A stretch of DNA of 64,000 nucleotides from a virus. The position numbers and the translations under genes were made by a program. Position 1 is the stretch's first letter. The number at the start of each line of letters is the position of its first letter. The notes beneath the pieces were generated by a model that saw only the letters and a list, made by a program, of their open reading frames with translations, had not been told where the DNA came from and searched no databases. Positions 1,603-57,183 of this stretch are shown piece by piece. The DNA lies in IMG/VR virus record IMGVR_UViG_3300027736_000027, positions 32,001-96,000 of that record. One strand, given 5' to 3'.

Positions 1603-2076
1603 ATGAAACACATTAAACTATTTGAAGGTTTCTCTAAAGAAGAGAATATGGCTAAGTCATATACATTAGAATTCCTGCCTAAATTCTGGGAGGATCTGGG
1701 TATTAAACGACCTGCTTTTGGTGCTGAGGCTGGTCATAGTCTTCTCAATAGAGACAATACTATAAAATTAACGGTAGGGAATGATCCAACTATTATTTAT
1801 AGAAGAGATACTCGTATGTATGATGATAAAGGTCGAAAGGCAGGTAGAGATGATGATAGTATATGGTATTCGATTAATTTATACAAAACTCCCAATGGCT
1901 TTATTTCCAAATCTGATAATAATATGCTAAAATATTCTCTTGATTTTCAAGAGGACAAAGATGCTAAGATAGGTGGTAATATGAATTTGATACCAATAGG
2001 TGTAGGAGAATTCGCATCAGAAGAAGTCGGTAGTATGGATAATAGGGAATTTTTTAAGATAGTAGCTGTTGACTAA
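1603..2076 (+). CDS. leader-tagged hypothetical protein (putative internal head protein)
   Basis: N-terminus MKHIKLFEGFSKEE. Confidence 0.75.
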   Translation: MKHIKLFEGFSKEENMAKSYTLEFLPKFWEDLGIKRPAFGAEAGHSLLNRDNTIKLTVGNDPTIIYRRDTRMYDDKGRKAGRDDDSIWYSINLYKTPNGFISKSDNNMLKYSLDFQEDKDAKIGGNMNLIPIGVGEFASEEVGSMDNREFFKIVAVD

Positions 2077-2089
2077 AAATAAATACAAT

Positions 2090-2560
2090 ATGAAACACAT
2101 TAAACTATTTGAAGGTTTCTCTAGAGAAGAGAATAGCTTAATATTAGAGTTTGATTATGAAAAACATAAACAAGAAGATCTAGACATAATTGATAGATTT
2201 ATTATCTCTATTAATCCAGGTACGGCTGATGTTCTTGAAGTGGAAGGACTTTTAGCAAGGACTAAACACCATAAGTTAGTATTTAAACCGTTAACCAATA
2301 CCAAGATATTTAAAAGTTCTGATTCTAGAAAACTACTCAAAGATGAGGAAATTAATTTGAATCAGGCTAGTCGAAACACAGATAACGCGGTAAACCATCT
2401 AAACACCAATATCAACAACTGGTTAGCTATCAAAACTGATTATGATAATTTAGTTCATGAAATACGGGTTGGTAAAATTATAGATGTTGCAGGATATGGA
2501 ACTTCTACTATCGGTGGTTTAAACTGTATATTTAATACTATAAAATTTGATAAAATATAA
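2090..2560 (+). CDS. leader-tagged hypothetical protein (start re-assigned to 2090)
   Basis: MKHIKLFEGFSREE; first 45 nt differ at one position from the gene at 1603. Confidence 0.75.
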   Translation: MKHIKLFEGFSREENSLILEFDYEKHKQEDLDIIDRFIISINPGTADVLEVEGLLARTKHHKLVFKPLTNTKIFKSSDSRKLLKDEEINLNQASRNTDNAVNHLNTNINNWLAIKTDYDNLVHEIRVGKIIDVAGYGTSTIGGLNCIFNTIKFDKI

Positions 2561-2573
2561 AATAAATACAATT

Positions 2574-3155
2574 ATGAAACACATTAAACTATTTGAAGGC
2601 TTTGTTGATGATCACGAAAGAATCTATAATAAGATTAGCCATTCACCAAGTAAGATAACTATAGAGTTAACTGAAAAGGGCAAAGACCTTATAGAAGGCC
2701 TACTACACGGTTGGGTGGAATCGTCAAGACCTGCTATTCAAACCGGCGGTTATAAACCACATACTATTATAGATATCAAAGATGCGGTAACAGTCTCAGC
2801 AAGTTATGGTGATGATGATAATAGTCGTCGTACTGTAGTGATTGGTCAGATTGAAATTAGAGGTAACTATGATAGTTGGGAGGGTATCTCACCGTTAACT
2901 AAATTATTACCAGATGAAAGTGGTAAAGAATACACAACGGGGTATTTCCAAATCTTTGTTAAATATTACCCGTTAGAAGATGAAGCTAGGACAGGAGCGA
3001 GTATAAGTATTCTGCAAGGTCTTAGGGCCAGTGAGAAGGATCAATATAAAGAACTAAAGAGAGGAAAATACCCTAAATACAATTGTGACTTTGATAAGGT
3101 TGAACCCGGCGAAGTAGATGATAGAGGTTACTTTAAGATAGTAGATATAAAATAA
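2574..3155 (+). CDS. leader-tagged hypothetical protein (start re-assigned to 2574)
   Basis: MKHIKLFEGF; C-terminal DDRGYFKIVDIK resembles DNREFFKIVAVD of gene 1603. Confidence 0.75.
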   Translation: MKHIKLFEGFVDDHERIYNKISHSPSKITIELTEKGKDLIEGLLHGWVESSRPAIQTGGYKPHTIIDIKDAVTVSASYGDDDNSRRTVVIGQIEIRGNYDSWEGISPLTKLLPDESGKEYTTGYFQIFVKYYPLEDEARTGASISILQGLRASEKDQYKELKRGKYPKYNCDFDKVEPGEVDDRGYFKIVDIK

Positions 3156-3169
3156 AATAAAGGATAATT

Positions 3170-3949
3170 ATGAAACACATTAAACTATTTGAAAGTTTCT
3201 CTGAAGAGTCAGGGTCAAGTCCAATTGAGGATTTTTATAAAAAGTATTATCCATCATCTTTAACGGCATCGCTAGACCCAAACTCCCAAGAAGCAAAGGA
3301 TCTACTGCTATATATTGACCTAAATTTAGGTCGACTAAGATCATCCGATGACACTGAGTTTTTACAAATACAAAAGAAATCTGGCTGGGGAGATATATTT
3401 CCAACCTATACAGAAATATTGAAAACTGATGATGCAGAACTTACTAAACTGGTTGATAACATTTATAAAAATGAAATTGCAGCCGTTAAGTCAATTTATA
3501 ATAACAAAAGCGATACGCAATTAACTGAAAGTTTTGATTTATCAAATGATAGCTGGAGAAATTGGGCTATTAGTAAAACTAAAAATCTGACATATGATGA
3601 TTTAGATAGTCATGAACAATCTTTTGTTGACCAAATATCTGATTTTATTAATGATACCTATTCTTATAAATTTCAAGAGTATAATGTTAATAGATATTCT
3701 AACGCGCCGCCCGCTGGGTTTAATAAACAATTGTTAAGGGTTGAAAATGGGCTAAGCCGAAAAGATATCGTTAATTTATCTGAAGATCTTGATACACGGT
3801 TTAATAAAGATAAATTTCTAACAATAGATGAATCTGGAACTCATTTTATAAAACTCGAACAAATTCTTGGAGATTACTATAAGTTGATATTAGACCCGCT
3901 TTTTATAAAAAAATATGAAAAAGAAGCCAAAGACTTTTATCGTAACTAA
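3170..3949 (+). CDS. leader-tagged hypothetical protein
   Basis: MKHIKLFESFSEE; internal LTES. Confidence 0.75.
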   Translation: MKHIKLFESFSEESGSSPIEDFYKKYYPSSLTASLDPNSQEAKDLLLYIDLNLGRLRSSDDTEFLQIQKKSGWGDIFPTYTEILKTDDAELTKLVDNIYKNEIAAVKSIYNNKSDTQLTESFDLSNDSWRNWAISKTKNLTYDDLDSHEQSFVDQISDFINDTYSYKFQEYNVNRYSNAPPAGFNKQLLRVENGLSRKDIVNLSEDLDTRFNKDKFLTIDESGTHFIKLEQILGDYYKLILDPLFIKKYEKEAKDFYRN

Positions 3950-4007
3950 CCCGGTTCCTGTCACCTGGCCCCTGGGCCCCCTTAAATTATTATCTGGTCC
4001 CGGCCCA

Positions 4008-4640: not shown

Positions 4641-4988
4641 ATGACAAATAGAATAATTAAAGATTTTAGTGGCTGGAACCACATTACTGAAACCAGTGAT
4701 ATGGCTGATACTGCACCAGTTGCAGCCCCGGCCACTACTACTGGAACCACTGGAACCACTACACCGACTACACCAACCGGTACAGCTGCAACTAATGGAT
4801 CAGCTGGAACCTCTGGAACCGCTGGAACGGGTGGAACCTCTGCACCCGCTGCAACCTCTGCACCCGCTGCAACTAATGGATCAGCTGGAACTGCTGGAAC
4901 CTCTGCACCCACTGGTGTTGTTTATAATGGTGGAGCCCCGCCGGCTCAAACCCCGGCTCCTGCACCATACAGTCTACTTAGACAGTAA
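4641..4988 (+). CDS. leader-tagged Thr/Gly/Ala/Pro low-complexity protein with GTS/GTA motifs
   Basis: MTNRIIKDFSGWNHITE leader; GSAGTSGTAGTGGTS; GATAAATAAC at 4602. Confidence 0.7.
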   Translation: MTNRIIKDFSGWNHITETSDMADTAPVAAPATTTGTTGTTTPTTPTGTAATNGSAGTSGTAGTGGTSAPAATSAPAATNGSAGTAGTSAPTGVVYNGGAPPAQTPAPAPYSLLRQ

Positions 4989-5032: not shown

Positions 5033-5638
5033 ATGCCAAATAGAATAGTTAAAGACTTTAAGAACTGGAACCTCATTACTGAAACCACTGATATTGTTGG
5101 TGCTACACAGGTCCTAGGTACTGGTACAGTTGGTGGTGGTTCACCCGGTTCCGATATTCCTACCGGTGGAGCCGAGGTAAAGGCTCCTGCTGGAACGTCC
5201 GGAACGTCTGGAGGATCCAACCGCGGTACAAGTTATCAAGCGGTAACGGCCGGAACTGATGGAACTGCCGCAACTTCTGCCCAGTTATTGCCGGCAGCGG
5301 TTGATAAACTGTCAAAAGAAATTGCTGAAATGATTGTTGCCTTATTTGCAAAGACTAGAGCATTTTGGGCTGGACAAAATGACCTTAACCTAAATGCAAC
5401 CGGTATGGTTGATGACAATGAAGAAACTGGAGTCAAAATATTTGAGGACTATTGGACTAAAAATATTTTACCAAAAATTTATATGCTACCTGTAGAAAAT
5501 AAAAATAAAGCAAGTCTTACTGCTCTCAAGACTCAAATTTCAGCTGCGATTACTGCTAGAAACACGAGTTTTACGTTTCAAATCTTCACAAGTGCAAGTA
5601 ATATTCCTACCAGCTACACAATAAACCCGGATTTTTAA
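5033..5638 (+). CDS. leader-tagged protein (second leader family)
   Basis: MPNRIVKDFKNWNLITE; AGTSGTSGGS. Confidence 0.75.
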   Translation: MPNRIVKDFKNWNLITETTDIVGATQVLGTGTVGGGSPGSDIPTGGAEVKAPAGTSGTSGGSNRGTSYQAVTAGTDGTAATSAQLLPAAVDKLSKEIAEMIVALFAKTRAFWAGQNDLNLNATGMVDDNEETGVKIFEDYWTKNILPKIYMLPVENKNKASLTALKTQISAAITARNTSFTFQIFTSASNIPTSYTINPDF

Positions 5639-5653: not shown

Positions 5654-6952
5654 ATGTCAAATAGAATAATTAAAGACTTTAAAGGCTGGAGCCTTATTCA
5701 TGAAAATAAAGGTCCAAATCCTGGTCCAAATCCTTTTCCACCCGGAACCAAAGATTGGGAGGATTGGCAAATGAACGTAGGAGGTGATGTTGAGGACGCG
5801 AACAGAACAGCAGCAGAGGCAGAGGTCGCGAAACAAGCAGCGGCAGAGGCAGAGGCTGCAAAAACTGCCGCTGCAAAAACTGCGGCTGCTGCTGGAACCT
5901 CTGGCACGGCTGGAACATCTGCTGTCACGAAAGCAGTCACATCAGTACCAGCTGCCCCGATTGTACCAACACCGGACTTAACAAAAGCAAATGCGGCTGC
6001 CTTAACTCGTAATGACTGGGCTGCAATACAAACTAAACTAAATGCGGCTGAACTAGCTTTACAGCAGACAACTCTAGTTAACCAGAGTAATCCTGCAAAT
6101 TTTAGTTTTGATAAAAAACCTAACCTAAATCCATTAATTAAAGAGTCTAGGTCAATGACTAAGCTATATGAAGAGCAATTAGTACCAGACGGCTTAGTTG
6201 GCCCAAAAACTTTATCCGCAATTGACACCTTTGTCTCCAACTATAATTCAAATCCGATAAATACCACAAAGCTCCCAGCCGATCCACTTAAGGATAAAGC
6301 GACGGCTACTACAATTAACCCGCTAGTATTAGCTGCAATTATTGCAGCAAGTACCGCACCAACTACTCAGCCGCCATCCGGACCAACCGGACCGGCCGCT
6401 ATTGCAGGTTCAGTATTTGGACCATCTGCAAATATTACAGAGGCTGATTGGGAGCCACAAATGACTAAAGACGCTCAAGGTAAGGACCAATCTACTTATT
6501 TAGAACCTACTTCACTACTACTCCAGGCCGCTAAACTGTTTATCTCTTCAACTTATAAACTGCTTGGCACGAACGAGGACAACATAATTAAAATTATTGA
6601 AAAGTGTGGATCCGCATCTGACTTTTATAAACTTAATGCACTAATATTTCAGTATTTAACTGTAACAGCTAAAAAGGCAGGTATGGATATTGCATATATA
6701 ATAAATGATGAGCTAGAAGGTGATAACAATGACGAAATTAAATTAATTAAAGATGCACTTACTAAATTAAATGTGCAATCGAGTTATGAGCTATATGCTG
6801 AAGGAACCGCTGAAGAAGGGTTTAAAAAGAATAGTTTTAAGATTACTATACCGTCAGGATCTGATCCAGAAACGGTATTACCGACTGCTGTGTATAAAAA
6901 ACTTGAGACTCAATACTTTAATCGGACAGCATCAACTGATATATTTTTATAA
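5654..6952 (+). CDS. leader-tagged protein with peptidoglycan-binding motif and annexin-like repeat
   Basis: MSNRIIKDFKGWSLIHE; PDGLVGPKTLSAI; LLGTNEDNIIKII...IINDELEGD. Confidence 0.7.
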   Translation: MSNRIIKDFKGWSLIHENKGPNPGPNPFPPGTKDWEDWQMNVGGDVEDANRTAAEAEVAKQAAAEAEAAKTAAAKTAAAAGTSGTAGTSAVTKAVTSVPAAPIVPTPDLTKANAAALTRNDWAAIQTKLNAAELALQQTTLVNQSNPANFSFDKKPNLNPLIKESRSMTKLYEEQLVPDGLVGPKTLSAIDTFVSNYNSNPINTTKLPADPLKDKATATTINPLVLAAIIAASTAPTTQPPSGPTGPAAIAGSVFGPSANITEADWEPQMTKDAQGKDQSTYLEPTSLLLQAAKLFISSTYKLLGTNEDNIIKIIEKCGSASDFYKLNALIFQYLTVTAKKAGMDIAYIINDELEGDNNDEIKLIKDALTKLNVQSSYELYAEGTAEEGFKKNSFKITIPSGSDPETVLPTAVYKKLETQYFNRTASTDIFL

Positions 6953-6965: not shown

Positions 6966-8573
6966 ATGAATTACTCCCCAATAATTAAAAGTTACACCAG
7001 TTGGTTAAATGAAAACCTGTTAATAACAGAAGCTGGCGAAGTTGATATTGATCAACTATATAGAGATGGAAACAGCTCAGCAATTATAGACTCTACAGTT
7101 GCCGCAGCCTCTGCTCAAGTTAAAGCTCATCCGGCCTATGCCGAGACACTGAATTGGTGGCGACGCGGTGGCGGAGATACTAATTTATTTCAGTCAATTT
7201 TTAAAAAGCCCTCAGCCCGCAAAAGTGACCGAGCCAATTCATTAAAATCTGCATACTATTGGGCCGGTTCAGGTTCAAATGTAAATATGGGTGCTCAACT
7301 TGCAACATTCTATAAAGTAGCAGACTCAATTATTACAAATGGTGCAAAACTTGGACTTGACGCAACCAAGATAGCTGGTCTCAGCTCTGCGGTTACCGGT
7401 TTAAAACAGGATCAAGCTGCTGGCTTTTTACTTAAAACCACTAGTTTACTTGGAGCATTTATTCCACTGCCGTTGGTTAAAGGTACAGTTACGGTGAGTG
7501 ATGCTGGCCAAGTTGATGTTGCAGCCTCTCTTGCCTCAGCTACACCAAATGCATTTATTTTAAGCCAACTAAAAACCTGGCAAGTTGCAGCAAACGCTGA
7601 TCCTGAACTAGCAAAGGATCCAGCAACTTCATATAAAACTTTAAAATCATATCAAGCAGATCCAGCTAAACTTAACAGCACCTGGCAAGGTAGTTTAAAC
7701 CTAACCGATCCTCAAAGATTAGAAATACTTGATGCTATTAGTGTCAAAACCGCTAATTATATTAAAAAAAATCCAACAATTGAATTAGCTAAGGCCATCT
7801 CAATTGCAACCGACCTGTACATTGTACCAAGGGCCCAGGAATTTAATATACAGCAACAGGCTGCTCAACCAGCGGCAGCTCCAAAAGTAATAATCGCTTC
7901 TTATCCTGGGATTCCAAAGGCTACAGGCGATCCAAATGTACAAAGTGGGCTTAGTTTTTTTCCAGATAATGGAATTACCGTAACTCCAGCAGCCTTGGCT
8001 GGAATAAATGAACTTATTAAAACCGCACTTGCTACCATCACACAAGCTGGTGGAACAATCACTGCGGTTAAAACATATGGTAAGTCATCAACTAGTAAAG
8101 TTGGAACAGATTATAAGTCAGCTTCAGGCACCGGCAATCCAGCTCTTGCAACTGACCGACTTGCTTCAATTAATACTGCTCTCGCTAATGCCCTAACTGC
8201 TAATGGTGTAACGGTTGCTCCAACTATTAATACCGCAGAGAATTTAGCAAAGCCTAACCAGGGACCTGACTGGACAGACAAAGATAAGACTGATCCTAAA
8301 TTTGGTAAACCTGGTGCCAGAACACCTGAATATGATAAGATATATGGTCCATATCGTTTTGCAATGGCATTTATTGAATTAACATATACGGTTCAATCGA
8401 CCGACCCGACTCAACCTGAAGTTACTGCAACTGCAAGTGGCACATGGAAAGTTTATATGAAGTGGGACAATGAATCTATTGAAATAAAATGGCCGCCTAT
8501 TCGAATTGGAGAGTGGCACGTTACTTTACCTAAACTAGGATCAATTGTGGTAGATGCATGTCCAATATTTTAA
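6966..8573 (+). CDS. leader-tagged protein with possible OmpA-like C-terminal domain (start re-assigned to 6966)
   Basis: IIKSYTSWLNENLLITE; FFPDNG...GNPALATDRLASINTAL. Confidence 0.65.
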   Translation: MNYSPIIKSYTSWLNENLLITEAGEVDIDQLYRDGNSSAIIDSTVAAASAQVKAHPAYAETLNWWRRGGGDTNLFQSIFKKPSARKSDRANSLKSAYYWAGSGSNVNMGAQLATFYKVADSIITNGAKLGLDATKIAGLSSAVTGLKQDQAAGFLLKTTSLLGAFIPLPLVKGTVTVSDAGQVDVAASLASATPNAFILSQLKTWQVAANADPELAKDPATSYKTLKSYQADPAKLNSTWQGSLNLTDPQRLEILDAISVKTANYIKKNPTIELAKAISIATDLYIVPRAQEFNIQQQAAQPAAAPKVIIASYPGIPKATGDPNVQSGLSFFPDNGITVTPAALAGINELIKTALATITQAGGTITAVKTYGKSSTSKVGTDYKSASGTGNPALATDRLASINTALANALTANGVTVAPTINTAENLAKPNQGPDWTDKDKTDPKFGKPGARTPEYDKIYGPYRFAMAFIELTYTVQSTDPTQPEVTATASGTWKVYMKWDNESIEIKWPPIRIGEWHVTLPKLGSIVVDACPIF

Positions 8574-8587
8574 AAATTAATAAATAC

Positions 8588-9316: not shown

Positions 9317-9952
9317 TTACTTTTTACCAGATAAAAATGCAGGTTTTCCGCCTTTTAGTGGCATTTTATTAGTTTCAGGCTTTGCAGATTTAACTGGCTT
9401 ACCGAATAACATTTTAGGCTTCATTGAAGATTCTTCTTCCTCTTCTTCTTCCATTTCCATGTTCTTCTTTGTCATTGGCTTCATTGGCATAGACTTCTTT
9501 GCTGGTTTCATTTTTGCAAATTTCTTGTCAATTGCATCAAGTGCCTCAATTTTTTCCTGCTTCTTAGCCTCAGATAATTCGCTAGCTGACATATTATCCA
9601 TTCTACCCATATTATGTCTGTCGATTTGACGATCTATTTTAGACCGTTGATAGGCATCTGCTTGACCATATAAGGTACGATCCATTTGACGTCCCATACC
9701 CTCAGGCTCTCCACATTCTATACAGTCACCATTATCATCAAACTTATAACAGTCACATGTTGCTAAATCATTACCTTCGTCATCATATCCACTTTCTAAA
9801 TCATTACCTTCGTCATCATATCCACTTTCTTCATAGCGATCATAACGGTTTTGCTTAGGTAACATATTATCATCTCCAGCATTTGGACTAAACATAGAAT
9901 CATGGTGACCTTCATTTACGAATTGACCAAATCTTTTTACTAAATTTTTCAT
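9317..9952 (-). CDS. leader-tagged charged, probably disordered protein
   Basis: MKNLVKRFGQFVNE; duplicated ESGYDDEGNDL; CDC...CIEC; poly-E and Lys/Met-rich tail. Confidence 0.7.
   Translation of the reverse strand: MKNLVKRFGQFVNEGHHDSMFSPNAGDDNMLPKQNRYDRYEESGYDDEGNDLESGYDDEGNDLATCDCYKFDDNGDCIECGEPEGMGRQMDRTLYGQADAYQRSKIDRQIDRHNMGRMDNMSASELSEAKKQEKIEALDAIDKKFAKMKPAKKSMPMKPMTKKNMEMEEEEEEESSMKPKMLFGKPVKSAKPETNKMPLKGGKPAFLSGKK
9763..9830. repeat. 33-bp tandem duplication inside a CDS
   Basis: CTAAATCATTACCTTCGTCATCATATCCACTTT twice. Confidence 0.85.
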
Positions 9953-9981: not shown

Positions 9982-10416
9982 TTATGGCTCAATATCCTCA
10001 GCCTCTATTCCAGGAATTTCAACTCCTAATCCTAGGGCTTCATCATTAAATTTATTAAAAGCAGCCTCAGCATCTTTCATTGTTTTATTTAATATAATAA
10101 GCGAGTCTTTAAGGGTTTTAACCTTTTCTTTGTCTTCATCAGTTACTGGAGACTTACGAGTTTCAACATCAATTGCCAAAAATTCTTTTTGTTTATCTTT
10201 AAACGCCTTTACTGCAGTTTTACGATCCTGATCTAATTTTTGAAATTTACCGATTTCAGTAGTTTCATCAAATGTTTCAAGATCAGCAGCCGGTGGTTCA
10301 GATTCCATAGAATCGCTAGGTACAGCAGGTACAGCAGGCTGAGCTGCTGGGTCCATTACTGGTGGAGCCTCAACTGTTTCAGATTCTTTAATCCATTCGG
10401 AATATTTATAAATCAT
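9982..10416 (-). CDS. leader-tagged coiled-coil protein
   Basis: MIYKYSEWIKES; GATAAATA on the minus strand at 10436-10443. Confidence 0.7.
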   Translation of the reverse strand: MIYKYSEWIKESETVEAPPVMDPAAQPAVPAVPSDSMESEPPAADLETFDETTEIGKFQKLDQDRKTAVKAFKDKQKEFLAIDVETRKSPVTDEDKEKVKTLKDSLIILNKTMKDAEAAFNKFNDEALGLGVEIPGIEAEDIEP

Positions 10417-10470: not shown

Positions 10471-10815
10471 ATGAAACATATTACTCTATTTGAAAATTGG
10501 AATACCCAGATTCAGCCAAGTGTGGCCAGTGATAGACCTCTTCGTAAATTAAGTGAATTAGGTATTAATCGACTCTTTAAAGATGAACGCTATGAATATG
10601 AACTATTTCCTAGATTTCGTAGACTGCAGCTTCAACACGATGAGTTTGAAAAGAAACCTAATTTAGCACAATGGTTTATTATGATGCAGAATTCGGATGC
10701 TGAATTTTATACACTGGTTCAAACTGGAGCTCTTGGTCAACCTGATGTTAGAGAACTATTTAGAGACTTAACTCGTCGACGTGCATCTAAAATGAAAAAG
10801 TATAACTTATCATAA
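10471..10815 (+). CDS. leader-tagged hypothetical protein
   Basis: MKHITLFENW; TATAAATA at 10454-10461. Confidence 0.7.
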   Translation: MKHITLFENWNTQIQPSVASDRPLRKLSELGINRLFKDERYEYELFPRFRRLQLQHDEFEKKPNLAQWFIMMQNSDAEFYTLVQTGALGQPDVRELFRDLTRRRASKMKKYNLS

Positions 10816-14878: not shown

Positions 14879-16843
14879 ATGATAAATTCATTTATTGAAT
14901 TAGTTAATGAATCAAATACACCTACTGGTCTAGTTGATGAAATGGGGATTAAAAGGGTTGAACGATTAAGCGGCAGCGACATGGGTGCAATGAGACAGGC
15001 CTCTCTTGATTTACGTAATAGACAACCGGTTAAGCCTAAAATATTTGAAGAAGTTGCTGGTGAATTAATATTAAAATTAAGACAAATTAACAGGTCTGAT
15101 ATTATAGTTGAGCCTATTTCAAATACTCGAAACTATTATATTAAATTTCCAACTGATATCGTTGAGTTAATGAAGTCTCTTAAATCAATTAATGAGTCTA
15201 AATTTGTTGATCTATTTGGAAAATGGAGAGATGTATTTCCAACCTATTCAGATGCAATTAAATTTAAAATTGATGATGAAGACTCATTTCAAAGAAGCCA
15301 TTTTCCCGGTGGAGGAATTCCACCTTCATTACGAGGTATTGGTCTAGGCTATAAAATGTACAGACAAGTATTAAAAACACTTGGCTATATTTCATCAAAT
15401 CCATCTGGCTCAACTGAAAAGGATAAGGCTTGGGGTTCTCTACTTTCATTTAAAGGAACCAATGGTATTGCAAATGAAGATGATGCTCATGCAATAATTG
15501 GAGTAAGAAATTGGTTAGCAATGGACAAAGCCTTGCCAACCGCTAAAAAAATTAAAGTTGCTGACTCTTTTATAGCTTCACTAGGTGGAACCAGCAGTAC
15601 TTCACCAACTAAATTTGATATAGATGATGAGCTATTAGAAATTTTACCAAATACTGTATTAGTTAAATTAAACAGTGACTATATTCGATCGCTAGTTACA
15701 GATTCACGAATATCTAGAGAAAAGGCTGAGCAAATTGAGTCAAGTAGAGATGAAGCGGATCGCCTTGCTCAAGAACGCCAAGCTAGACAACAGCAAGTCG
15801 ATCGAGAGAGACAAGCTAGAGAAGAAGTGGAAGTTCGCGAAAGACTTGCTGACCGAATCAGACAATATGGTGCTGATCCAGATGCAGATTGGGATATTGG
15901 TGATTTTATTGTTGTGAAGACCTATCTATACGATGCAAACTATTCAGGGCTGCCAATTCGTAGAGTTGTTTCCAGAAATAATACAGAGTATCGAGCTGCC
16001 AAAATATCAGATGCAATCAGAATAGATAATGGAGAAATTACTCCAACTCAATCAAATGATTCCAGAACAACAACCACAAAATCTTCATGGGTTAAGGTTA
16101 ATATTAATCAAATACCTGACCTAACTAGAGTTAATTTATCAACTGCTGAAATTAGATACGTTGAGGCCCTATTAAATCCAGAACTGGTTGCAGCTAGACA
16201 GGCTGAAGTAGAAGCGGCAACTGCCCGTAGATTAGAGACCGAGCGTACTCAAAATGCTGAGCGTGCTCAAAGTTTAGCTACATTTGGAACATTTCCGCCA
16301 ACTGGTGCAGAACTTAAGCGCGACATGGCAAACCGGTCAGCGCTTAGAAATTTTGAACTAGTAAAGAAATTTAAGTCACAAGATTTTACTAGAAATTTAC
16401 AGTTTATTGTATTAGGCCCAGCACAAAGAGACATGTTTAGAAATAATTGGGGAATTCCAGTTTTTATTCCATGGAAAGGATCACAATATAACCCTAGACC
16501 AATTAGCAGCCTGGCTGAATTAACTGAGTCTAATGCTCAAAATATTACACTAACCAATCCAGTAAATGGAGTTACCATAAATTATCCGTATGTTGGACTG
16601 GGTTTAACTGGCTATCAATTAAGTGAAGTTACAATGGATGATAAATTATCTGCAAGATCTGGTCAACACTATTATATTGCAGGTCACCAAAATGCATTTG
16701 GAATTATTGCGAAAAGTGAGTATGGTGCACGAAATACATCTGATCAGAAATTTATTTATGTAAAAGCATATGGTTGGGGAGATCGTAGCGTGTCAGTTAG
16801 ACTTGATCTACTTAGAAAGATTGGCGAGCCTATTCAAATTTAA
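14879..16843 (+). CDS. leader-tagged multidomain protein with GNAT-like acetyltransferase domain and coiled coils
   Basis: MINSFIELVNES; acetyl-CoA motif IPPSLRGIGLGYKMY; E/R/Q-rich coils. Confidence 0.7.
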   Translation: MINSFIELVNESNTPTGLVDEMGIKRVERLSGSDMGAMRQASLDLRNRQPVKPKIFEEVAGELILKLRQINRSDIIVEPISNTRNYYIKFPTDIVELMKSLKSINESKFVDLFGKWRDVFPTYSDAIKFKIDDEDSFQRSHFPGGGIPPSLRGIGLGYKMYRQVLKTLGYISSNPSGSTEKDKAWGSLLSFKGTNGIANEDDAHAIIGVRNWLAMDKALPTAKKIKVADSFIASLGGTSSTSPTKFDIDDELLEILPNTVLVKLNSDYIRSLVTDSRISREKAEQIESSRDEADRLAQERQARQQQVDRERQAREEVEVRERLADRIRQYGADPDADWDIGDFIVVKTYLYDANYSGLPIRRVVSRNNTEYRAAKISDAIRIDNGEITPTQSNDSRTTTTKSSWVKVNINQIPDLTRVNLSTAEIRYVEALLNPELVAARQAEVEAATARRLETERTQNAERAQSLATFGTFPPTGAELKRDMANRSALRNFELVKKFKSQDFTRNLQFIVLGPAQRDMFRNNWGIPVFIPWKGSQYNPRPISSLAELTESNAQNITLTNPVNGVTINYPYVGLGLTGYQLSEVTMDDKLSARSGQHYYIAGHQNAFGIIAKSEYGARNTSDQKFIYVKAYGWGDRSVSVRLDLLRKIGEPIQI

Positions 16844-17650: not shown

Positions 17651-18013
17651 ATGCTTAAGAAATTTGATGAATTTAATCAGGAATTAAATGAAGGATTTTG
17701 GGATTGGTTAACTGGAAAATCTGAAACAGGTGACGCTAAAAAACCTAAAAAGAGCAAGGACGATGGCCCCGGTATAACCGATTCAACTACTAACGACTAT
17801 TATAAAACACTACAAGACTTTGCTGATTCAGGAAAGTCAATCGCAGTTCAAAAATATGGCAGTATGGAATATTCTAAAATGGTTGAAGATATTCAAATTG
17901 CTCTGAAATTTTTAGGATATCCACTTCCCAAATATGGAGTAGATGGATACTTTGGTAAAGAGACATTTGACTCAATTGCTAAGTTTAACACTGATACTAT
18001 AAGTAAAAAATAA
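17651..18013 (+). CDS. leader-tagged peptidoglycan-binding domain protein
   Basis: MLKKFDEFNQELNE; IQIALKFLGYPLPKYGVDGYFGKET. Confidence 0.8.
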   Translation: MLKKFDEFNQELNEGFWDWLTGKSETGDAKKPKKSKDDGPGITDSTTNDYYKTLQDFADSGKSIAVQKYGSMEYSKMVEDIQIALKFLGYPLPKYGVDGYFGKETFDSIAKFNTDTISKK

Positions 18014-18022: not shown

Positions 18023-19273
18023 ATGATACGCAGTTTTAGCAAATTTATAAAAACACTTAATGAGTCAACCCTAATGTCACCATTGCCTGTCTTTAATGTA
18101 ACTCACCCATTTGGAGAACCCAGGACATCACGTCCGCATAATGGTGTTGATTTGGCGACATATAGAGATGGAAAAATTGCATCTGGAGTGCCAGTTACTT
18201 CACCAGCTGACGGAGAGGTAATTGTTGCTAATATAAATGGTAATAGTATGTGTGGCGGAACTATTAGAATTAAACATGCTAATAATATTGTAACCGGTTA
18301 TTGTCATATTAAACAAGTTGATGTAAAAACCGGGGACCAAGTTAAACAGGGCCAAGTTATTGGATTAAGCGGTGGTGGAGCTGGTGATATAGGAAAAGGC
18401 AATTCAACCGGACCGCATTTACATTTTACCGTTACTGTAAATAATGAGGTGGTTGATCCAGCTGAATATATTGATAAACTTAATTTGCCACAATCTACTG
18501 AAAAAGTTGATGATAACACTGTATTAATTAATGCTGATTTAATTAACAGATTAATTAAAAAGTTGAAGGAGAAGAATTTTAGCCAAAGCGATTTAAGCGC
18601 CTATTCTAAATCTAGCGATTCCAAATCTAGTGGTGGATCACAGTCTACTGGTAATATTAATATTAGTTCTGGAAACTTTGACACAAATCAAAAAGAAAAT
18701 ATTTCATTATTAATTAGTTCAATGACAGCTAAAGGAATAACTGATCCACTTACCCAAATAGGTATATTATCCGTAATTTCAAAAGAGTGTAATTTTAAAC
18801 CTAAAAGTGAAGTTGGATATGACACAACCTCAAACTCAAGAATTAAAGGAATATTTGGAAGTAGAGTTAGCAGCTTATCTGATTCAGAATTAGATGCTCT
18901 TAAGAGTAAGCCTGAAGATTTTTTTAATTTGGTTTATGCAAATATTATTGGTAATGGACCAGCGTCAAGTGGAGACGGTTGGACATATAGAGGTCGTGGA
19001 TTTAACCAGTTAACCGGTAGAGCTAATTATAAAAAATACGGAAATATAATAGGTAAAGACCTAGTTGGCAATCCGGATTTGGTAAACGATCCTAAAATAG
19101 CTGCAGATATTGCAATAGCATTTGCAACAAAAGGAAAACCTGCATCAAACTTTCCAACCTTTACTGATAAAACTGCCGCTGCTGAATTTTTTGCAGATAT
19201 TAACGCAGGCGGCGGAGTAAGTAGCCATCGAAGTCATGCAGTTGCTGCCACTAATAAGTTTAATATTGCATAA
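18023..19273 (+). CDS. leader-tagged M23 peptidase + GH19-like lysozyme
   Basis: MIRSFSKFIKTLNES; HNGVD, YCH, STGPHLHF; DGWTYRGRGFNQLTGRANY. Confidence 0.9.
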   Translation: MIRSFSKFIKTLNESTLMSPLPVFNVTHPFGEPRTSRPHNGVDLATYRDGKIASGVPVTSPADGEVIVANINGNSMCGGTIRIKHANNIVTGYCHIKQVDVKTGDQVKQGQVIGLSGGGAGDIGKGNSTGPHLHFTVTVNNEVVDPAEYIDKLNLPQSTEKVDDNTVLINADLINRLIKKLKEKNFSQSDLSAYSKSSDSKSSGGSQSTGNINISSGNFDTNQKENISLLISSMTAKGITDPLTQIGILSVISKECNFKPKSEVGYDTTSNSRIKGIFGSRVSSLSDSELDALKSKPEDFFNLVYANIIGNGPASSGDGWTYRGRGFNQLTGRANYKKYGNIIGKDLVGNPDLVNDPKIAADIAIAFATKGKPASNFPTFTDKTAAAEFFADINAGGGVSSHRSHAVAATNKFNIA

Positions 19274-19737: not shown

Positions 19738-20329
19738 TATGTTTCTGTATTGTTTGTTTAACCCATTCAAAATTTACTGGCGTATAATCCGTCAAGCAGG
19801 TACACACTGAATAGGCATTTTTTATTGGGTGCACAATTGTGTGTGAGTGACCGTATAAATGATATGCACCATGGTGCTTTCCATTAAATTCAAGAATTGG
19901 ATAGTGGAATAAGACAATTCTTCGATAACCAATTTGTTGGTCAGAATCAGGAAAGAAAATCTCATCATACTCTTTAAACTCTATAATCTTTGCGGCTTCA
20001 CTAAGTTCTCTAAACCACATGTCGGTTATATGAGTATCGTGATTACCCTTTAACCAAATAATATTTCCATTAAGCTGACTAAAAATCCATTTAAGATAAC
20101 TCAATTTAATTCGATACATTGAAGCATCACCTAGGAAAAAAACAGTATCGTCTTCCTGTACAACTGAATTCCAACGAGCAATTATTTCAGTATCATGCTC
20201 TTCAATTGACTTAAAGTTATGGAAACCTTCCTCAAATCTTAAAACATTACTATGATCAAAATGTGGATCACTTATAAACCAGGTCTTGGCTGGGTCGTAT
20301 ATTTTATTGGGCGGTATTTGTATGCTCAT
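19688..20329 (-). CDS. calcineurin-like metallophosphoesterase
   Basis: SDPHFDH, LGD, KGNHD, HYP, GHSH. Confidence 0.9.
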   Translation of the reverse strand: MSIQIPPNKIYDPAKTWFISDPHFDHSNVLRFEEGFHNFKSIEEHDTEIIARWNSVVQEDDTVFFLGDASMYRIKLSYLKWIFSQLNGNIIWLKGNHDTHITDMWFRELSEAAKIIEFKEYDEIFFPDSDQQIGYRRIVLFHYPILEFNGKHHGAYHLYGHSHTIVHPIKNAYSVCTCLTDYTPVNFEWVKQTIQKHNEGLNRLGELSVHSTS

Positions 20330-21390
20330 GCTAGTTTTTTACTAACATACTCAAAAGCGGTTTCGGCATCACTCATAACCTTAGCTCGTTGTTGATGGGC
20401 TAGATCAGTTTCAGCCTTATTATATTTAGACGAAGACGTGTGCTTGTCTATTTTTATTTTGTAAATATTAACGACTTCCTGTAAGAATTCTTGAGAGTTC
20501 TTGTATTTAGATTTAGGCAGCTCAAATGTACCATTTTGCTCTAGCGTTCTGGCAAATCCCAAAATACCATTGCAAATCTGTTCAAGACTTAATGCAGTCA
20601 CATCAATACCAGGGTGCTGTTGCAAGTATTGATCAAGCTGAACTGCTCGCTTCTCTCCACGCGTAAATTCATCAGTGAATTCTGCAAGCTGGGCTAGGAA
20701 CCGGTTAAAATCTCTGGTGACAATTCTCTCTTCAACTCCCTTACGTAATAATGGATTAACCAGCTCTCCGCCTTTAATCTTGGCAACAACACCTCGATCA
20801 GTTACCGAAACATCAAGCGCATTACCAAATGCTTGATATAAGAAACCTACAACAAATCCTTTAATACCCCGAATTGGCGTATATCTGGCTTTTGCCCAAT
20901 CTGATGAGTAATTAAATGTTGAAATAATATCGACTTGTACAGGTCCATCCTTTAAATTTATGACTAACTTAAGGGTACCTTCAGAGATGGCACTGGTTTC
21001 TTCTTTATCTAGGTCAGGTCGAGTTGTCTTGGCTAACCACTGTAAAAAAAGACCATTATATTTTTTAAGAGTATCAATTTCAGCTTGACGGCCTTGAGGC
21101 TCATTGAGCGGATACATTACAATAATATCAACATCACCATATGCCTTTTCAGGATTCTCTTCAAGATCCTTTTTGAAATAGACGCCTGATCCGCCAGGAC
21201 CAACTACGGTTAATGAATCAAATCCATGAGCCTGTGCCCATTGATTAAAATCGTTAAAAATATTTTCAAGAACCCCAATTGCCTCCTGTAAAACAGCCGG
21301 CGTTATTTTGGTTCCCTGCGTTTTAGTTGTTGCCCAGCCACCCATTTCATTTATTTGTAAAAAGTCAGTAAATGATTTAATATTCTTCAA
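20326..21390 (-). CDS. leader-tagged Pol-beta-superfamily nucleotidyltransferase
   Basis: MKNIKSFTDFLQINE; GGSG...YGDVDII...VQVDII; GATAAATAAC upstream. Confidence 0.7.
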   Translation of the reverse strand: MKNIKSFTDFLQINEMGGWATTKTQGTKITPAVLQEAIGVLENIFNDFNQWAQAHGFDSLTVVGPGGSGVYFKKDLEENPEKAYGDVDIIVMYPLNEPQGRQAEIDTLKKYNGLFLQWLAKTTRPDLDKEETSAISEGTLKLVINLKDGPVQVDIISTFNYSSDWAKARYTPIRGIKGFVVGFLYQAFGNALDVSVTDRGVVAKIKGGELVNPLLRKGVEERIVTRDFNRFLAQLAEFTDEFTRGEKRAVQLDQYLQQHPGIDVTALSLEQICNGILGFARTLEQNGTFELPKSKYKNSQEFLQEVVNIYKIKIDKHTSSSKYNKAETDLAHQQRAKVMSDAETAFEYVSKKLA

Positions 21391-32306: not shown

Positions 32307-33035
32307 TTAAAGTAAATAAGGACACTTCTTGGAAATCTCCTCTCTATTAATATACTCACTTAAATATTTTTCAACTAATGATTTAGAGGTTTGGTGTTTA
32401 TACCAATTTGGGATTTTTCCAAGTTTAGATTCATATGCTTGAAAATATAAATCAACCAGTTCAGGTGTTTTTAATTTAAAATTTTCCATTGCCAATAGGA
32501 TCGGGCCGGTTTTTGTAAAACCTATTCTAAATCTAGAAAATTCTGATGATAATTTAGAATATAAGTTTTCAGAAATTTGAGATAATATTGGAATCTCAGG
32601 ATATCTAGCTATATTTAAATGAATTGGCCTGCCGTCAATTATTTCTCTGGCTCCAATTATACGCCCTTCATAGGTGGCAACCTGAATTTGAGTATCAATT
32701 TTTGGTTTATTAAAATAAATTGAACCCTTTAATAAATTTGCACGGTTTAGGTGTCTAAAAGTTGGAAACGTTTGAATGGTAGAGTTTGGAGAAATTACTG
32801 AAATTGGCGTTTTTAATTTCATAGCCTTAAATCTGTCTCCTACAAATCCTGGAATTAGGTCAGATCCGGCTAATCTATTAAATACTTGATGCGTTGAATA
32901 TTCGTTTGGGGTAATTTGTACGCTAATTTTTGCATCACTGTTAAATAGGTCAGGAATATTATGATTTTCCCCAATTAGGGCAATTTTTTTAGAAAAAATA
33001 TCATGAACTTGAAACTCATCAAACGGTCTTATCAT
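32307..33035 (-). CDS. leader-tagged hypothetical protein, possibly a degenerate ATP-grasp fold
   Basis: MIRPFDEF; weak similarity only. Confidence 0.55.
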   Translation of the reverse strand: MIRPFDEFQVHDIFSKKIALIGENHNIPDLFNSDAKISVQITPNEYSTHQVFNRLAGSDLIPGFVGDRFKAMKLKTPISVISPNSTIQTFPTFRHLNRANLLKGSIYFNKPKIDTQIQVATYEGRIIGAREIIDGRPIHLNIARYPEIPILSQISENLYSKLSSEFSRFRIGFTKTGPILLAMENFKLKTPELVDLYFQAYESKLGKIPNWYKHQTSKSLVEKYLSEYINREEISKKCPYLL

Positions 33036-48015: not shown

Positions 48016-48642
48016 TTAAAAATAAGTAGTTAAATTTTCTTTCATTTGTGGATTTTTAATAAGAACTGAATCCTTTAACATCTTTCGAGCCTTTCTAATT
48101 TTAGTTTTAACAGTATTTAAATTCATATTATATTTAGAGGCAATTGCATCGCCTTTCATTGAATGAATTTCCTTGTCTACTAAAATTGATTTTTCAATAC
48201 CATCCGGCAGAGATTGCAATTCGTCAGTTGTCATTTTATAGAGAGACTCAATGTACATTTCTTTATCAAAATTAAAAACGCTATCGTCTTCAATATTTAA
48301 AGGTCTAGTCATATTATCAATCCTGATAGCATAATTTTTAATTAACTTATGCTTATGTAATAGTGCCTCATTTTTTGCAATTGTATAAATCCAGGTCGTA
48401 AATCTAAATGTATCATTATACGAATCCAGGCCTTTAAATATTTTAAACAGAGTATTGTGTAATACCTCGGCAGTTTCATCTTCATCATTAAAAAATTTCC
48501 ATATAAAATATTTTAATTTTGGATACATAATTGAAGCTAATCTGTTTCGATCACGTTCAGTATAGTCTTTGCTTTTTATTTTTTCAGCAAGTTTTTGCAT
48601 CTCATTATTGAGTTGCTTGTTTATTAGGTCGTATGCGCTCAT
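48016..48642 (-). CDS. ECF-type sigma-70 family RNA polymerase sigma factor
   Basis: region 2 EVLHNTLFKIF...FRFTTWIYTIAKN; region 4 IASKYNMNLNTVKTKIRKARKML. Confidence 0.9.
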   Translation of the reverse strand: MSAYDLINKQLNNEMQKLAEKIKSKDYTERDRNRLASIMYPKLKYFIWKFFNDEDETAEVLHNTLFKIFKGLDSYNDTFRFTTWIYTIAKNEALLHKHKLIKNYAIRIDNMTRPLNIEDDSVFNFDKEMYIESLYKMTTDELQSLPDGIEKSILVDKEIHSMKGDAIASKYNMNLNTVKTKIRKARKMLKDSVLIKNPQMKENLTTYF

Positions 48643-52375: not shown

Positions 52376-52382
52376 GAATTAT

Positions 52383-54836: not shown

Positions 54837-54848
54837 CTGTGACTGTTT

Positions 54849-54879
54849 TTGCAAACAAGTTTTTATGGCTTGTTTGCAA
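54849..54879. terminator. hairpin downstream of tmRNA
   Basis: TTGCAAACAAG / CTTGTTTGCAA. Confidence 0.7.
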
Positions 54880-54917
54880 TAAATAGTTAGATAGAAAAAC
54901 TTAATATAAATAACTAT

Positions 54918-55271
54918 ATGACAGGACTAGTAAATGGAACCAAACTAATTTGGACCTTGGTAATTATAATTGTAATTTTAATTGTATCACTATGTATTTC
55001 AATTGACTCAGACCAGTCAGACAAGTATAGTAAAGAAAAGTCACAAATTGATAGTTTATCAACAATTATCTCTAAATTAGAAAAAGATCAACTTAAATAC
55101 GATAGCCTAATTATAGGGTATCAACATAACTTAGTTGTTGCAGATCAACAAATTGACTCAACTAAAAATAAAATAAAAGAAATACAAAATTATTATGGTA
55201 AGAAAATTAAAGATATTAGTCGGGCTACTCCTGTTGAACTTGATGACTTTTTCACAAATCGCTACAAATAA
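54918..55271 (+). CDS. TM + coiled-coil protein (spanin-like)
   Basis: N-terminal TM and coil; TATAAATAAC at 54905. Confidence 0.55.
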   Translation: MTGLVNGTKLIWTLVIIIVILIVSLCISIDSDQSDKYSKEKSQIDSLSTIISKLEKDQLKYDSLIIGYQHNLVVADQQIDSTKNKIKEIQNYYGKKIKDISRATPVELDDFFTNRYK

Positions 55272-55608
55272 AAAAGTTCACTGCTTTCCAGATAGTATTG
55301 CAAAGCAGATTGCAATAGATTTAGTAAGAGGCGACTCTGCTAAAATAGAATTAACTAAAACTATTATATTAGTAAATCAGTTAGAAGAAAAGAATTTAAC
55401 TAATGAGAGACTTGTTAATACATATGTTTCTAAAGTAGCTAATTTTTCATCACAAATTGATTTATATAGACAAAAAGAGGTTAAGTACACACAAATTGTT
55501 ACAGGTTTAGAAAAGGATGTTAAGAAAGAACGCAGTAAGAATAAAATTATAAAAATTGCAGCTGGTGTATTTGCAGTATTGGCAGTAATCGGATTTTCAT
55601 CAAATTAA
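55195..55608 (+). CDS. signal peptide + coiled coil + C-terminal TM (spanin-like partner)
   Basis: overlaps the previous gene; hydrophobic at both ends. Confidence 0.55.
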   Translation: MVRKLKILVGLLLLNLMTFSQIATNKKVHCFPDSIAKQIAIDLVRGDSAKIELTKTIILVNQLEEKNLTNERLVNTYVSKVANFSSQIDLYRQKEVKYTQIVTGLEKDVKKERSKNKIIKIAAGVFAVLAVIGFSSN

Positions 55609-55621
55609 ATAATTAATAAAT

Positions 55622-56389
55622 ATGAATACCCTAAATACCGATGATATATTTTTAAGAAATTTAACAATTTCTCTGCTTGACTTATTAAACAGTGAAATGC
55701 ATCTTACTATTTCTAGAGCAGATCATAAAGAGACATTTTCAGTGCCATTTTTATATAATTTTGCAACAGATGAAGGTTTCTTAAAAGATTTTTATGTAGG
55801 TTTACCAGATAATTGTGAAATACCGGTAGCTGAAGGAGCTTACGATATTATCCCTAGGGGAATTGTATCATTGACTTCATTTGAGGTGAGTTCGGCTGAT
55901 ATTACAAATAAATTTGTTAGAGGACAATTTTCAGCTACTGAAAAAGGAGCTAATGATGCCAATATTCTTACTGGTTATTCAGCTCAACTCTATACACTTC
56001 CGCTCTCTGTAAAATTTGATATTAAAATTATTTGTGATAATTTAAATAAAGCATTTAAAATTGCTGAACAGTTATTAGACATATATTATTCAAATAGAGT
56101 AATGTATTTTCAATATAATGGAGTTAGAATTCCTGCGCAATTTTCATTTCCATCTACTGAACTTGTTGATAAAAAATATTCAACATTTACAATGAACACC
56201 GATAATAAAATAACGGTTTCATTATCGATTGCAATTGAAACGTATTTCCCTAGTTTTGAAAAAACTTCTAAACGTAAAAGTTCTAATATTATGGACAAAA
56301 TTAATATAACTAAAAGGGATTCAATTAATAATAATACACTAGCAAGTGTCTGGGTTGATCAAACAACCGGTCAAGATCCAAATATATGA
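55622..56389 (+). CDS. tail terminator / sheath stabiliser, T4 gp15-like
   Basis: SVPFLY, IIPRG, LPLSVKFDIKI...AFKIAEQLL, IETYFP. Confidence 0.7.
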   Translation: MNTLNTDDIFLRNLTISLLDLLNSEMHLTISRADHKETFSVPFLYNFATDEGFLKDFYVGLPDNCEIPVAEGAYDIIPRGIVSLTSFEVSSADITNKFVRGQFSATEKGANDANILTGYSAQLYTLPLSVKFDIKIICDNLNKAFKIAEQLLDIYYSNRVMYFQYNGVRIPAQFSFPSTELVDKKYSTFTMNTDNKITVSLSIAIETYFPSFEKTSKRKSSNIMDKINITKRDSINNNTLASVWVDQTTGQDPNI

Positions 56390-57183
56390 AGTATCTAGTA
56401 GAGTTTAAAACATTTACAATTAACGAAGGTGGAAATGCTTTTCCAGATGCACAGAGTCTTACTCGTGCAGAAGTTGAGCCGGCCTTTGCTAAATTCCAAA
56501 GTGCAATGACTCAATTATTTGGAGAAGCTGAACTTGAATTAATTGGTTCATGGAGACAAAAAGATATTTCTGGAGATCTTGATGCTCTATTTTATTCTGA
56601 GCTTAGTCTGCCTGATATATCAGCAAAAATTCAAACCGCTGGCTATGAAACAAAAATATTTTATGGATTTAATATTGTGTCAGTTAAATTTGAAATTTCT
56701 ACAGGGCACTTTGTACAATTTGATATGTTCGTCAAACCGTTAGACACAAATCGTAATATAAATGATATTTTCTATAAGTCAATTGATGAAGAAGACTATT
56801 CCACTAAGCACCGAGTCTTTTTGATATTTTGTGCACTAGACTCTATGCAGTTTGATAAAATTGAAAAGAACGGTACGGTAACCCAGTTTAAAGGATATAT
56901 GTTTAGACCGGATGGAATATATCAATTTACTAAAGAATTAAAAAAGATTAATTATAAAATAGTTGATCGCAAGCTTATTGCAGATACAATTCCTGAAATT
57001 TCAGATATACTATTTGGAAAAAATTATCCATATGCTAAATGGAATACCTACGAAAAGACAATAGCTTTATTAACAGCCGCTAGTCAAAGTACTAATCCTA
57101 AATTAAATATGCCTCTTATTTTAAAAGAATATCGAGCTAAACTAGAAGAAGAAGGTTTAGTAATTCCAGGCGGAATTGATTAG
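56386..57183 (+). CDS. leader-tagged Pol-beta-superfamily nucleotidyltransferase
   Basis: MKYLVEFKTFTINEGGNAF; LIGS...SGDLDAL...VQFDMF. Confidence 0.75.
   Translation: MKYLVEFKTFTINEGGNAFPDAQSLTRAEVEPAFAKFQSAMTQLFGEAELELIGSWRQKDISGDLDALFYSELSLPDISAKIQTAGYETKIFYGFNIVSVKFEISTGHFVQFDMFVKPLDTNRNINDIFYKSIDEEDYSTKHRVFLIFCALDSMQFDKIEKNGTVTQFKGYMFRPDGIYQFTKELKKINYKIVDRKLIADTIPEISDILFGKNYPYAKWNTYEKTIALLTAASQSTNPKLNMPLILKEYRAKLEEEGLVIPGGID

Follow-up and report, generated by a model that had tools for sequence, protein, structure and literature searches.

Unrelated proteins of an uncultured T4-type phage share an N-terminal leader that resembles the T4 capsid targeting sequence

INTRODUCTION

The DNA analysed here, called the window, is a stretch of 64,000 nucleotides that corresponds to bases 32001-96000 of one linear viral contig of 110,950 bp from IMG/VR (record IMGVR_UViG_3300027736_000027). 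Along this stretch, genes for apparently unrelated proteins begin with the same short basic and aromatic leader, and the question raised by the locus is what purpose one leader could serve on so many different proteins. A preliminary description of the window compared the leader with the capsid targeting sequence (CTS) of phage T4 and proposed that it is used on a much larger scale to load wall hydrolases, membrane proteins and host-modifying enzymes into the phage head. In T4 a few internal proteins bear a CTS, and at least one of them, IPI, disarms a restriction enzyme of the host as it enters the cell. The T4 CTS reads MKTYQEFIAE (PMC8442874). Its residues 4 and 7 target the protein whereas residues 8 and 10 direct processing by gp21, which cleaves after L/I-X-E; with Asp at position 10 targeting persists but processing is lost (PMC9026906).

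RESULTS

A common leader at the start of unrelated proteins

All 20 leaders listed in the preliminary description were found at true gene starts in the window. The number given there was about 24; 20 were counted in the window, and the whole contig has 34 among about 112 open reading frames (ORFs) of at least 80 aa, grouped in clusters of 13, 1, 11, 4, 4 and 1. Roughly one gene in four of the contig is thus tagged. All gene counts in this work refer to ORFs called simply as the longest ORF; for ORF 2069, ORF 2547 and the gene at 6966 the real start codon is an ATG inside the longest ORF.

The frequency of the leader was compared with several controls. The strict core [IL]K.[FY]..[FW] is present 14 times at N-termini as opposed to three times in 26,931 internal positions. 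Of 156 ORFs, 35 begin with a loose leader pattern, as compared to 6.0 on average and 14 at most when the N-termini were shuffled 2000 times; elsewhere it follows 2.7% of 297 internal Met positions, and a very loose version occurs in 14 of 132 spurious, out-of-frame ORFs. When a trailing x-[NT]-E-like end was included, 16 ORFs matched, against 0.27 in shuffles, one of the 297 internal Met positions and none of the 132 out-of-frame ORFs. According to the preliminary description, equal abundance of the motif in shuffled controls would have spoken against its proposal; with the stricter definition of leader plus [ILV]-x-E, 26 proteins were found where 0.44 were expected from shuffled N-termini.

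The proteins carrying the leader are indeed unrelated. From residue 19 on, their bodies fall into about 27 BLAST families, and the sole paralogues are eight repeat proteins encoded upstream of the window. Even the four genes that share the start MKHIKLFE[GS]F code for bodies unrelated at E<=10. As described before, the leader is absent from Hsp70/DnaK, the ATP-dependent DNA ligase, UvdE, PhoH, the sigma factor and the large terminase, and the same holds for the exonuclease, the guanylate kinase and the gp6-like protein; housekeeping and structural genes of known family are untagged. The observation itself is confirmed: the leader is real and non-random.

The leader has the layout of the T4 capsid targeting sequence

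Aligned on the pair of aromatic residues, the leaders give the consensus M-K-[YH]-I-K-L-[FY]-E-x-[FW]-[VIL]-[NT]-E-[SG], of which the end part [VIL]-[NT]-E-[SG] is often, not always, present. They come in a short form, which contains L-[FY]-E and has the Glu at residue 8, and a long form, which runs to [ILV]-[NT]-E and has the Glu at residues 11-17. The initiator Met is the first residue of all 34 leaders, and their predicted P1 Glu falls between residues 6 and 17. The first aromatic position is F or Y in 34 of 34 leaders and the second F, W or Y in 33 of 34; as the search pattern itself demanded the aromatic pair, it is the shuffle controls that give this finding its significance. An [ILV]-x-E with the Glu at residues 5-20 is present in 32 of the 34 tagged but only 19 of 102 untagged proteins (odds ratio 70, p=1e-15), and the Glu is often followed by a linker rich in Thr, Pro, Gly and Ala.

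This arrangement, an aromatic pair three residues apart and then hydrophobic-x-Glu, corresponds to the functional layout of the T4 CTS, in agreement with the earlier proposal. The exact T4 geometry, [FYW]xx[FYWL][ILV]xE, is seen in 10 of the 34 leaders, and the remaining ones have one to four extra residues before hydrophobic-x-Glu. The one T4 sequence that was checked, the published CTS, fits the pattern of these 10 leaders.

A signal peptide of the Sec or lipoprotein type has a basic N-region and then a hydrophobic core some 7-15 residues long. This candidate was rejected, as the leader alternates charged and hydrophobic residues and has no hydrophobic core. True signal-peptide-like N-termini are found on two other genes (Table 1).

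Lineage of the phage and its relatives

The contig is AT-rich (30-42% GC) and about 41% complete according to CheckV. Among the matches of the gp6-like protein of the window are annotated T4 gp6 baseplate-wedge genes from phages of Aeromonas, Tenacibaculum, Flavobacterium and Sphingomonas, as well as from Lak and other huge phages. Using this protein as query, 65 related viral loci were recovered. Among the relatives, contigs G001-G003 measure 246-253 kb, are 92-94% complete, and contain one Peptidase_S77 (T4 gp21) and one Gp23 match each over the Pfam cut-offs. Judged by the gp6-like protein and terminase of the window and by the Gp23 family in these three relatives, the phage belongs to the T4 superfamily of myoviruses. 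The contig is a fragment of this uncultured T4-type phage of about 250 kb. Gene starts lack Shine-Dalgarno sequences and are preceded by A-rich DNA, which, together with the hosts of the relatives, suggests a host among the Bacteroidota. A megablast search with 22 kb against a phage collection gave no match, and most tagged proteins, like most of the large proteins of structural size at 33-47 kb, could not be assigned to a family with Pfam and PHROGs.

Over the Pfam cut-off, Peptidase_S77 was detected in four of five larger relatives, fused to a long motif-rich extension. In G002 (161268-163250) the S77 domain occupies residues 37-149 of a 660-aa protein, whose gene lies directly upstream of the capsid gene; the protease also gives a weak Peptidase_S80 match. 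This protease-scaffold protein has five [ILV][NT]E[SGAN] sites as compared to 0.43 expected from the proteome-wide rate (Poisson 9e-5), and nine such sites are present in its G004 homologue and four in that of G003. The capsid protein of the relatives is related to T4 gp23. At residue 53, G001 and G002 have S-L-N-E with A or S as the next residue, and G003 has A-L-F-E with S next; the site precedes the part of the protein that lines up with the beginning of mature gp23. Given these sites in the protease-scaffold and capsid proteins, the motif at the end of the leader is the one concentrated in those proteins that are known to be cut by the gp21-type protease in T4. That the leader end is shared with the protease-scaffold protein and the capsid propeptide region provides the strongest, albeit indirect, support for the predicted cut site.

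The leader itself also occurs in relatives. G002 (41% GC) has 26 strict matches in 280 proteins, where 0.76 are expected. G003 (26% GC) has 36 in 294 proteins, mostly of the form MKHIKLFEQFISEE..., and 30 against 1.26 expected with a stricter pattern. In LR756500.1, a published huge-phage assembly of 462 kb, eight tagged genes lie in 41.7 kb around gp6. No leader was found in the first 50 kb of the AT-rich Tenacibaculum phage PTm1, one loose match unlike the leader in Lak-B5, and three loose matches in LR756504.

Two further observations concern the head genes of G002. A gene for a DnaJ-type co-chaperone (L078:3319-4194) lies directly beside the prohead protease-scaffold gene, and the window codes for a complete Hsp70/DnaK (Table 1), which suggests a phage chaperone pair that may help to assemble the head or to handle cargo. 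Directly downstream of the capsid gene, G002 159054-159413 (L077:19054-19413, minus strand) encodes a Lys-rich protein of 119 aa with a leader-like start running to L-F-E, a candidate internal or core protein.

The leader behaves as a detachable module

Comparison of tagged proteins with their homologues supports, in silico, that the tag is a detachable add-on module. Homologues of the NUDIX hydrolase at 44-96% identity, many of them on viral contigs of up to 253 kb, carry the leader, with F-[LIV]-x-E at the end of most of these leaders. The leader is lacking in homologues of 129-148 aa at 32-48% identity, which begin at the first strand of the fold, and the untagged NUDIX genes of T4-like cultured phages align from residues 16-19 only. 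In an AlphaFold2 model (pLDDT 91.6) a helix at residues 5-11 and a coil at 12-18 precede the fold, which starts at residue 19; the leader is outside the fold, and the first 20 residues have a pLDDT of 67-70. The NUDIX lineage of the window has retained the aromatic pair and lost the [ILV]-x-E of most orthologues, so that this protein may be targeted yet unclipped.

For the ATP-grasp protein, MKY[LIV]FEF..Y or a close variant is present in 44 of 46 homologues at 49-96% identity, the two exceptions being a 219-aa fragment and a form that begins at an inner Met; the lone homologue at 25% identity has no leader. Homologues of the 354-aa protein, whether they start with ATG, GTG or TTG, all keep the leader, which ends in [IL]-x-E, and the invariant MGGWATTKTQ of this family starts directly after the Glu. 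In its AlphaFold2 model residues 1-18 have a pLDDT below 50, as compared to 86.6 overall. The gene starts with TTG both here and in G002 and has an in-frame Met right behind the Glu of the predicted cut. Some public gene calls give 354 aa and others 339 aa, counted from that Met; the nucleotidyltransferase might be made both tagged and untagged.

All 13 tagged proteins with a homologue in G002 have kept the leader there. The G002 counterpart of the M23 protein has a replaced N-terminal domain and still bears the leader, and orthologues of the 265-aa protein encoded beside gp6 keep it in relatives at 55-85% gp6 identity. At 22 of 81 positions where the leader residues are identical between the contig and G002, the codons differ; judged from these alignments, the leader is conserved at the protein level.

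A separate observation was made at 1603-3949 on the plus strand, where the first ~30 nt of four adjacent genes, which code for the leader, are nearly identical in DNA and the bodies are unrelated. This pattern looks like leader-mediated recombination or cassette exchange.

A promoter-like motif upstream of tagged genes

The preliminary description also stated that many tagged genes or their operons follow KATAAATA late promoters. We scored [TG]ATAAATA, which we take to be the T4 late-promoter consensus TATAAATA, at 8-80 nt upstream of genes. An association does exist: on the contig the motif precedes 10 of 34 tagged and eight of 102 untagged genes (p=0.003), and in G002 nine of 26 tagged and 19 of 254 untagged genes (p=3e-4), the latter including the protease-scaffold gene, gp6 and a sheath-sized gene. 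The earlier statement is borne out in part. The untagged sigma factor of the window (Table 1) is possibly a late sigma factor that would read the TATAAATA-type motif.

The tagged proteins

Wall hydrolases are found among the tagged proteins, as had been proposed: a protein with Peptidase_M23 and a GH19-like domain, a protein with a weakly matching peptidoglycan-binding domain, and, just upstream of the window, a protein of the T4 lysozyme family (Phage_lysozyme, 28.8 bits). The latter is one of 13 more tagged genes in the upstream region G000:C1:3700-14600 (L103), which also includes an array of LRR-like repeat proteins (LRR_EndoS, one match over the cut-off, the others below). The proposed membrane proteins, in contrast, were not recovered: no tagged protein has a transmembrane-like segment or a hydrophobic stretch of 19 residues, the maximum Kyte-Doolittle mean being 1.52. 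"Host-modifying enzymes" is a guess; the enzymes seen are a nucleotidyltransferase of the Pol-beta fold, a NUDIX hydrolase and an ATP-grasp enzyme of the YheC/D type. The nucleotidyltransferase contains the motif GPGGSG...GDVDILV and gave weak Foldseek matches to Pol lambda/beta and TUTases (E ~4e-4, TM 0.3-0.44). The remaining tagged proteins belong to no known family. PDB sequence searches with three tagged proteins found nothing, and an Atlas search yielded nothing for the 654-aa protein and only a weak nucleotidyltransferase lead for the 354-aa protein.

A G002 homologue is present for 13 of 34 tagged as compared to 48 of 79 untagged proteins (p=0.04). The tagged set thus turns over faster.

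Table 1. Tagged genes of the window and other features mentioned in the text (positions in the window)
Position	Strand	Length	Leader	Remarks
1603..2076	+	157 aa	short type, MKHIKLFEGF; L-F-E, Glu8	no Pfam family
2090..2560	+	156 aa	short type, MKHIKLFEGF	start is an internal ATG of ORF 2069
2574..3155	+	193 aa	short type, MKHIKLFEGF	start is an internal ATG of ORF 2547
3170..3949	+	259 aa	short type (…LFESF), Glu8	
4641..4988	+	115 aa	long type to I-T-E, Glu17	followed by Thr/Pro/Ala-rich linker
5033..5638	+	201 aa	long type to I-T-E, Glu17	
5654..6952	+	432 aa	long type to I-H-E, Glu17	followed by Gly/Pro/Asn-rich linker
6966..8573	+	535 aa	to L-N-E, Glu16	start inside ORF 6771; G002 homologue also with leader
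8558-9235			none	signal-peptide-like N-terminus
9317..9952	-	211 aa	exact T4 geometry (…RFGQFVNE), Glu14	
9982..10416	-	144 aa	to I-K-E, Glu11	GATAAATA upstream
10471..10815	+	114 aa	short type, L-F-E, Glu8	TATAAATA upstream
10953-11972	-		none	histone-deacetylase-family domain (57.9 bits)
12041-13909	-		none	complete Hsp70/DnaK (851 bits)
14879..16843	+	654 aa	to V-N-E, Glu11	G002 homologue 55% identical, same leader; no known family
17651..18013	+	120 aa	to L-N-E, Glu14	weak match to a peptidoglycan-binding domain (22.5 bits, below the cut-off of 23)
18023..19273	+	416 aa	to L-N-E, Glu14	Peptidase_M23 and GH19-like wall hydrolase
20326..21390	-	354 aa	to I-N-E, Glu15, right before conserved MGGWATT	TTG start; Pol-beta-superfamily nucleotidyltransferase fold
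28725..29801	-	358 aa	exact T4 geometry to L-T-E, Glu12	TATAAATA upstream
29893..31020	+	375 aa	MKYLFEF..Y	YheC/D-type ATP-grasp enzyme
31830..32297	-	155 aa	without [ILV]-x-E site	NUDIX hydrolase
32307..33035	-	242 aa	MIRPFDEF, without [ILV]-x-E site	G002 homologue 56% identical, leader kept
48016..48642	-	208 aa	none	sigma factor, region 2 only
49692-51641			none	large terminase
52625-54355		576 aa	none	gp6-like baseplate-wedge protein
54455-54839	+			full-length tmRNA (Rfam RF00023, 100 bits)
55195-55608			none	signal-peptide-like N-terminus
56386..57183	+	265 aa	to I-N-E, Glu14, before conserved GGNAF	
57808-60132		774 aa		glycosyltransferase
60551-64000				GC-rich region (42%)

Other features of the window

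Besides Hsp70, the large terminase and PhoH, the window contains genes for an ATP-dependent DNA ligase, UvdE, an exonuclease and a guanylate kinase. The tmRNA has the gp6-like baseplate gene on one side and the next gene block on the other, and the peptide tag predicted for it by ARAGORN is unusually long. The untagged protein with the histone-deacetylase-family domain is unusual for a phage. The GC-rich region at the end of the window codes for Ser/Thr/Gly-rich repeat proteins and adjoins the glycosyltransferase.

DISCUSSION

From the data presented here we consider it rather probable that the leader acts as a T4-type capsid targeting sequence, which would serve for loading into the head followed by clipping, on a far larger scale than in T4. 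Tagged genes would be expressed late, some of them from TATAAATA-like promoters common to structural genes, a step for which the upstream motif gives weak evidence. By analogy with T4, the first 8-17 residues would form a short amphipathic helix, whose aromatic pair would dock the protein on the scaffold core of the prohead during its assembly. A gp21-type serine protease (Peptidase_S77) would then cut after the Glu of [ILV]-x-E, with a preference for Asn or Thr at P2, and the mature proteins would remain in the head and enter the cell together with the DNA. The cargo would be diverse, with quick turnover between relatives: two to three wall hydrolases, the Pol-beta-fold nucleotidyltransferase, the NUDIX and ATP-grasp enzymes, the LRR-like array and many unassigned proteins. 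With respect to the interpretation put forward in the preliminary description, the CTS layout, the T4 superfamily, the S77 protease and repeated motif in relatives, and the add-on nature of the tag speak for it, whereas the membrane-protein cargo has to be dropped.

Several points weigh against this interpretation. Peptidase_S77 and Gp23 are absent from the ~41% complete contig of the window, which has no protease, scaffold or capsid gene, and the link to the protease therefore runs through the relatives. A cultured phage with the tag, whose published virion proteome could be used, was sought among PTm1, Lak-B5, LR756504 and the T4-like NUDIX carriers, and neither such a phage nor a proteome of any member was found. 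The total count of [TG]ATAAATA on the contig equals the shuffle expectation, so that the support from expression is modest. The L-[FY]-E of short-type leaders lies inside the conserved core and is thus not independent evidence for a cut site, and in two tagged proteins an [ILV]-x-E is lacking altogether. The majority of the tagged proteins are acidic, with a pI of 4-6, as opposed to the basic internal proteins of T4, and at least 30 cargo species per head is far beyond T4.

Among the other explanations, the leader could be a handle for a different target, such as the Hsp70/DnaJ chaperones, another part of the virion (neck, fibres or head decoration) or an intracellular site, with the Glu motif being incidental. 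A hydrophobic-aromatic core with flanking Lys resembles Hsp70-binding peptides, the phage encodes a full Hsp70 and its relative G002 a DnaJ beside the protease-scaffold gene, and an external site on the virion would also suit the LRR-like and wall-hydrolase cargo. Such a handle would, however, leave unexplained why the protease-scaffold protein is enriched in the leader-end motif and the capsid propeptide region contains it too, why the layout fits the four functional residues of the T4 CTS, and why the conserved mature sequence of the nucleotidyltransferase family starts directly after the Glu. We regard this explanation as unlikely.

It is also conceivable that the N-terminus has no role in the protein at all and reflects a mobile 5' cassette of promoter, start and first codons, or an optimal AT-rich translation start in a host that does without Shine-Dalgarno sequences. 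The near identity of the first ~30 nt in the genes at 1603-3949, the A-rich upstream regions, the variable content of the tagged clusters and the smaller share of tagged genes with G002 homologues would fit this. What makes it very improbable is that the peptide rather than the DNA is maintained: there are conservative non-synonymous changes at the aromatic (F/Y/W) and aliphatic (I/L/V) positions, identical residues are often encoded by different codons, the peptide is kept from 26% to 41% GC and over 49-96% identity in the ATP-grasp and 44-96% in the NUDIX family, and the full motif was seen in none of the 132 out-of-frame ORFs. Finally, the Lys/Ile/Phe/Asn/Glu-rich N-termini of an AT-rich genome might produce such leaders by chance, as the very loose pattern does in spurious ORFs and at internal Met positions. 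The shuffle, internal-Met and out-of-frame controls refute this: the stricter pattern exceeds its expectation many times over on the contig (26 vs 0.44), in G002 (26 vs 0.76) and in G003 (30 vs 1.26), and PTm1, although AT-rich, has no leader in its first 50 kb.

Compared with its counterpart in T4, the putative CTS described here likewise begins at the start Met, is short (8-17 residues), combines an aromatic pair three residues apart with hydrophobic-x-Glu, and is borne by otherwise unrelated, fast-evolving accessory proteins in a lineage with a gp6-type baseplate gene, whose near-complete members also have gp21-type protease and gp23-type capsid genes. It differs in scale, as 34 of about 112 ORFs of at least 80 aa carry it here, and about 9-12% of the genes in complete relatives, as compared to a handful in T4. 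Further differences are the usual Asn or Thr at the predicted P2, the mostly acidic cargo with enzymes of up to 654 aa, and the fusion of the protease to an extension of ~500 residues. The large phages phiKZ, 201phi2-1 and SPN3US also pack dozens of proteins into their heads and have a related protease (gp175/gp245) that cleaves after Glu, in this case after S/A/G-X-E or A-X-E. Their propeptides are, however, mostly longer than 100 residues, with no common short tag (PMC5694885), and in SPN3US only eight head proteins are processed, whereas here one consensus of 8-17 residues is reused. The Dar antirestriction proteins of phage P1 are similar in that N-terminal regions send accessory proteins that counter host defence into the head; they belong to another lineage and assembly pathway and are not known to have a common short consensus (PMC9024508). 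A search of the full-text literature retrieved the T4 CTS and the long SPN3US and phiKZ propeptides; no description was retrieved of huge or uncultured phages that reuse a short tag of the CTS type.

More tentatively, and with less assurance than for the role of the leader itself, we suggest that an uncultured clade of the T4 superfamily with genomes of ~250-460 kb may use the head as a bulk delivery vehicle by way of one CTS-like tag. Between 10 and 25% of the genes would then code for tagged cargo (wall hydrolases, the Pol-beta-fold nucleotidyltransferase, NUDIX and ATP-grasp enzymes and arrays of LRR-like binders), which relatives would rapidly exchange, and the phages would carry a ready-made effector repertoire that by far exceeds any described. 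The predicted cut site, [ILV]-[NT]-E followed by S, G or A, makes the idea directly testable. If it is true, the tag, with at least 30 tagged proteins per genome, would list from sequence alone what the phage brings into the cell. It would then point to new counter-defence and take-over enzymes among the unannotated genes of these phages and would provide a short, ready-made tag for loading foreign proteins into large capsids.

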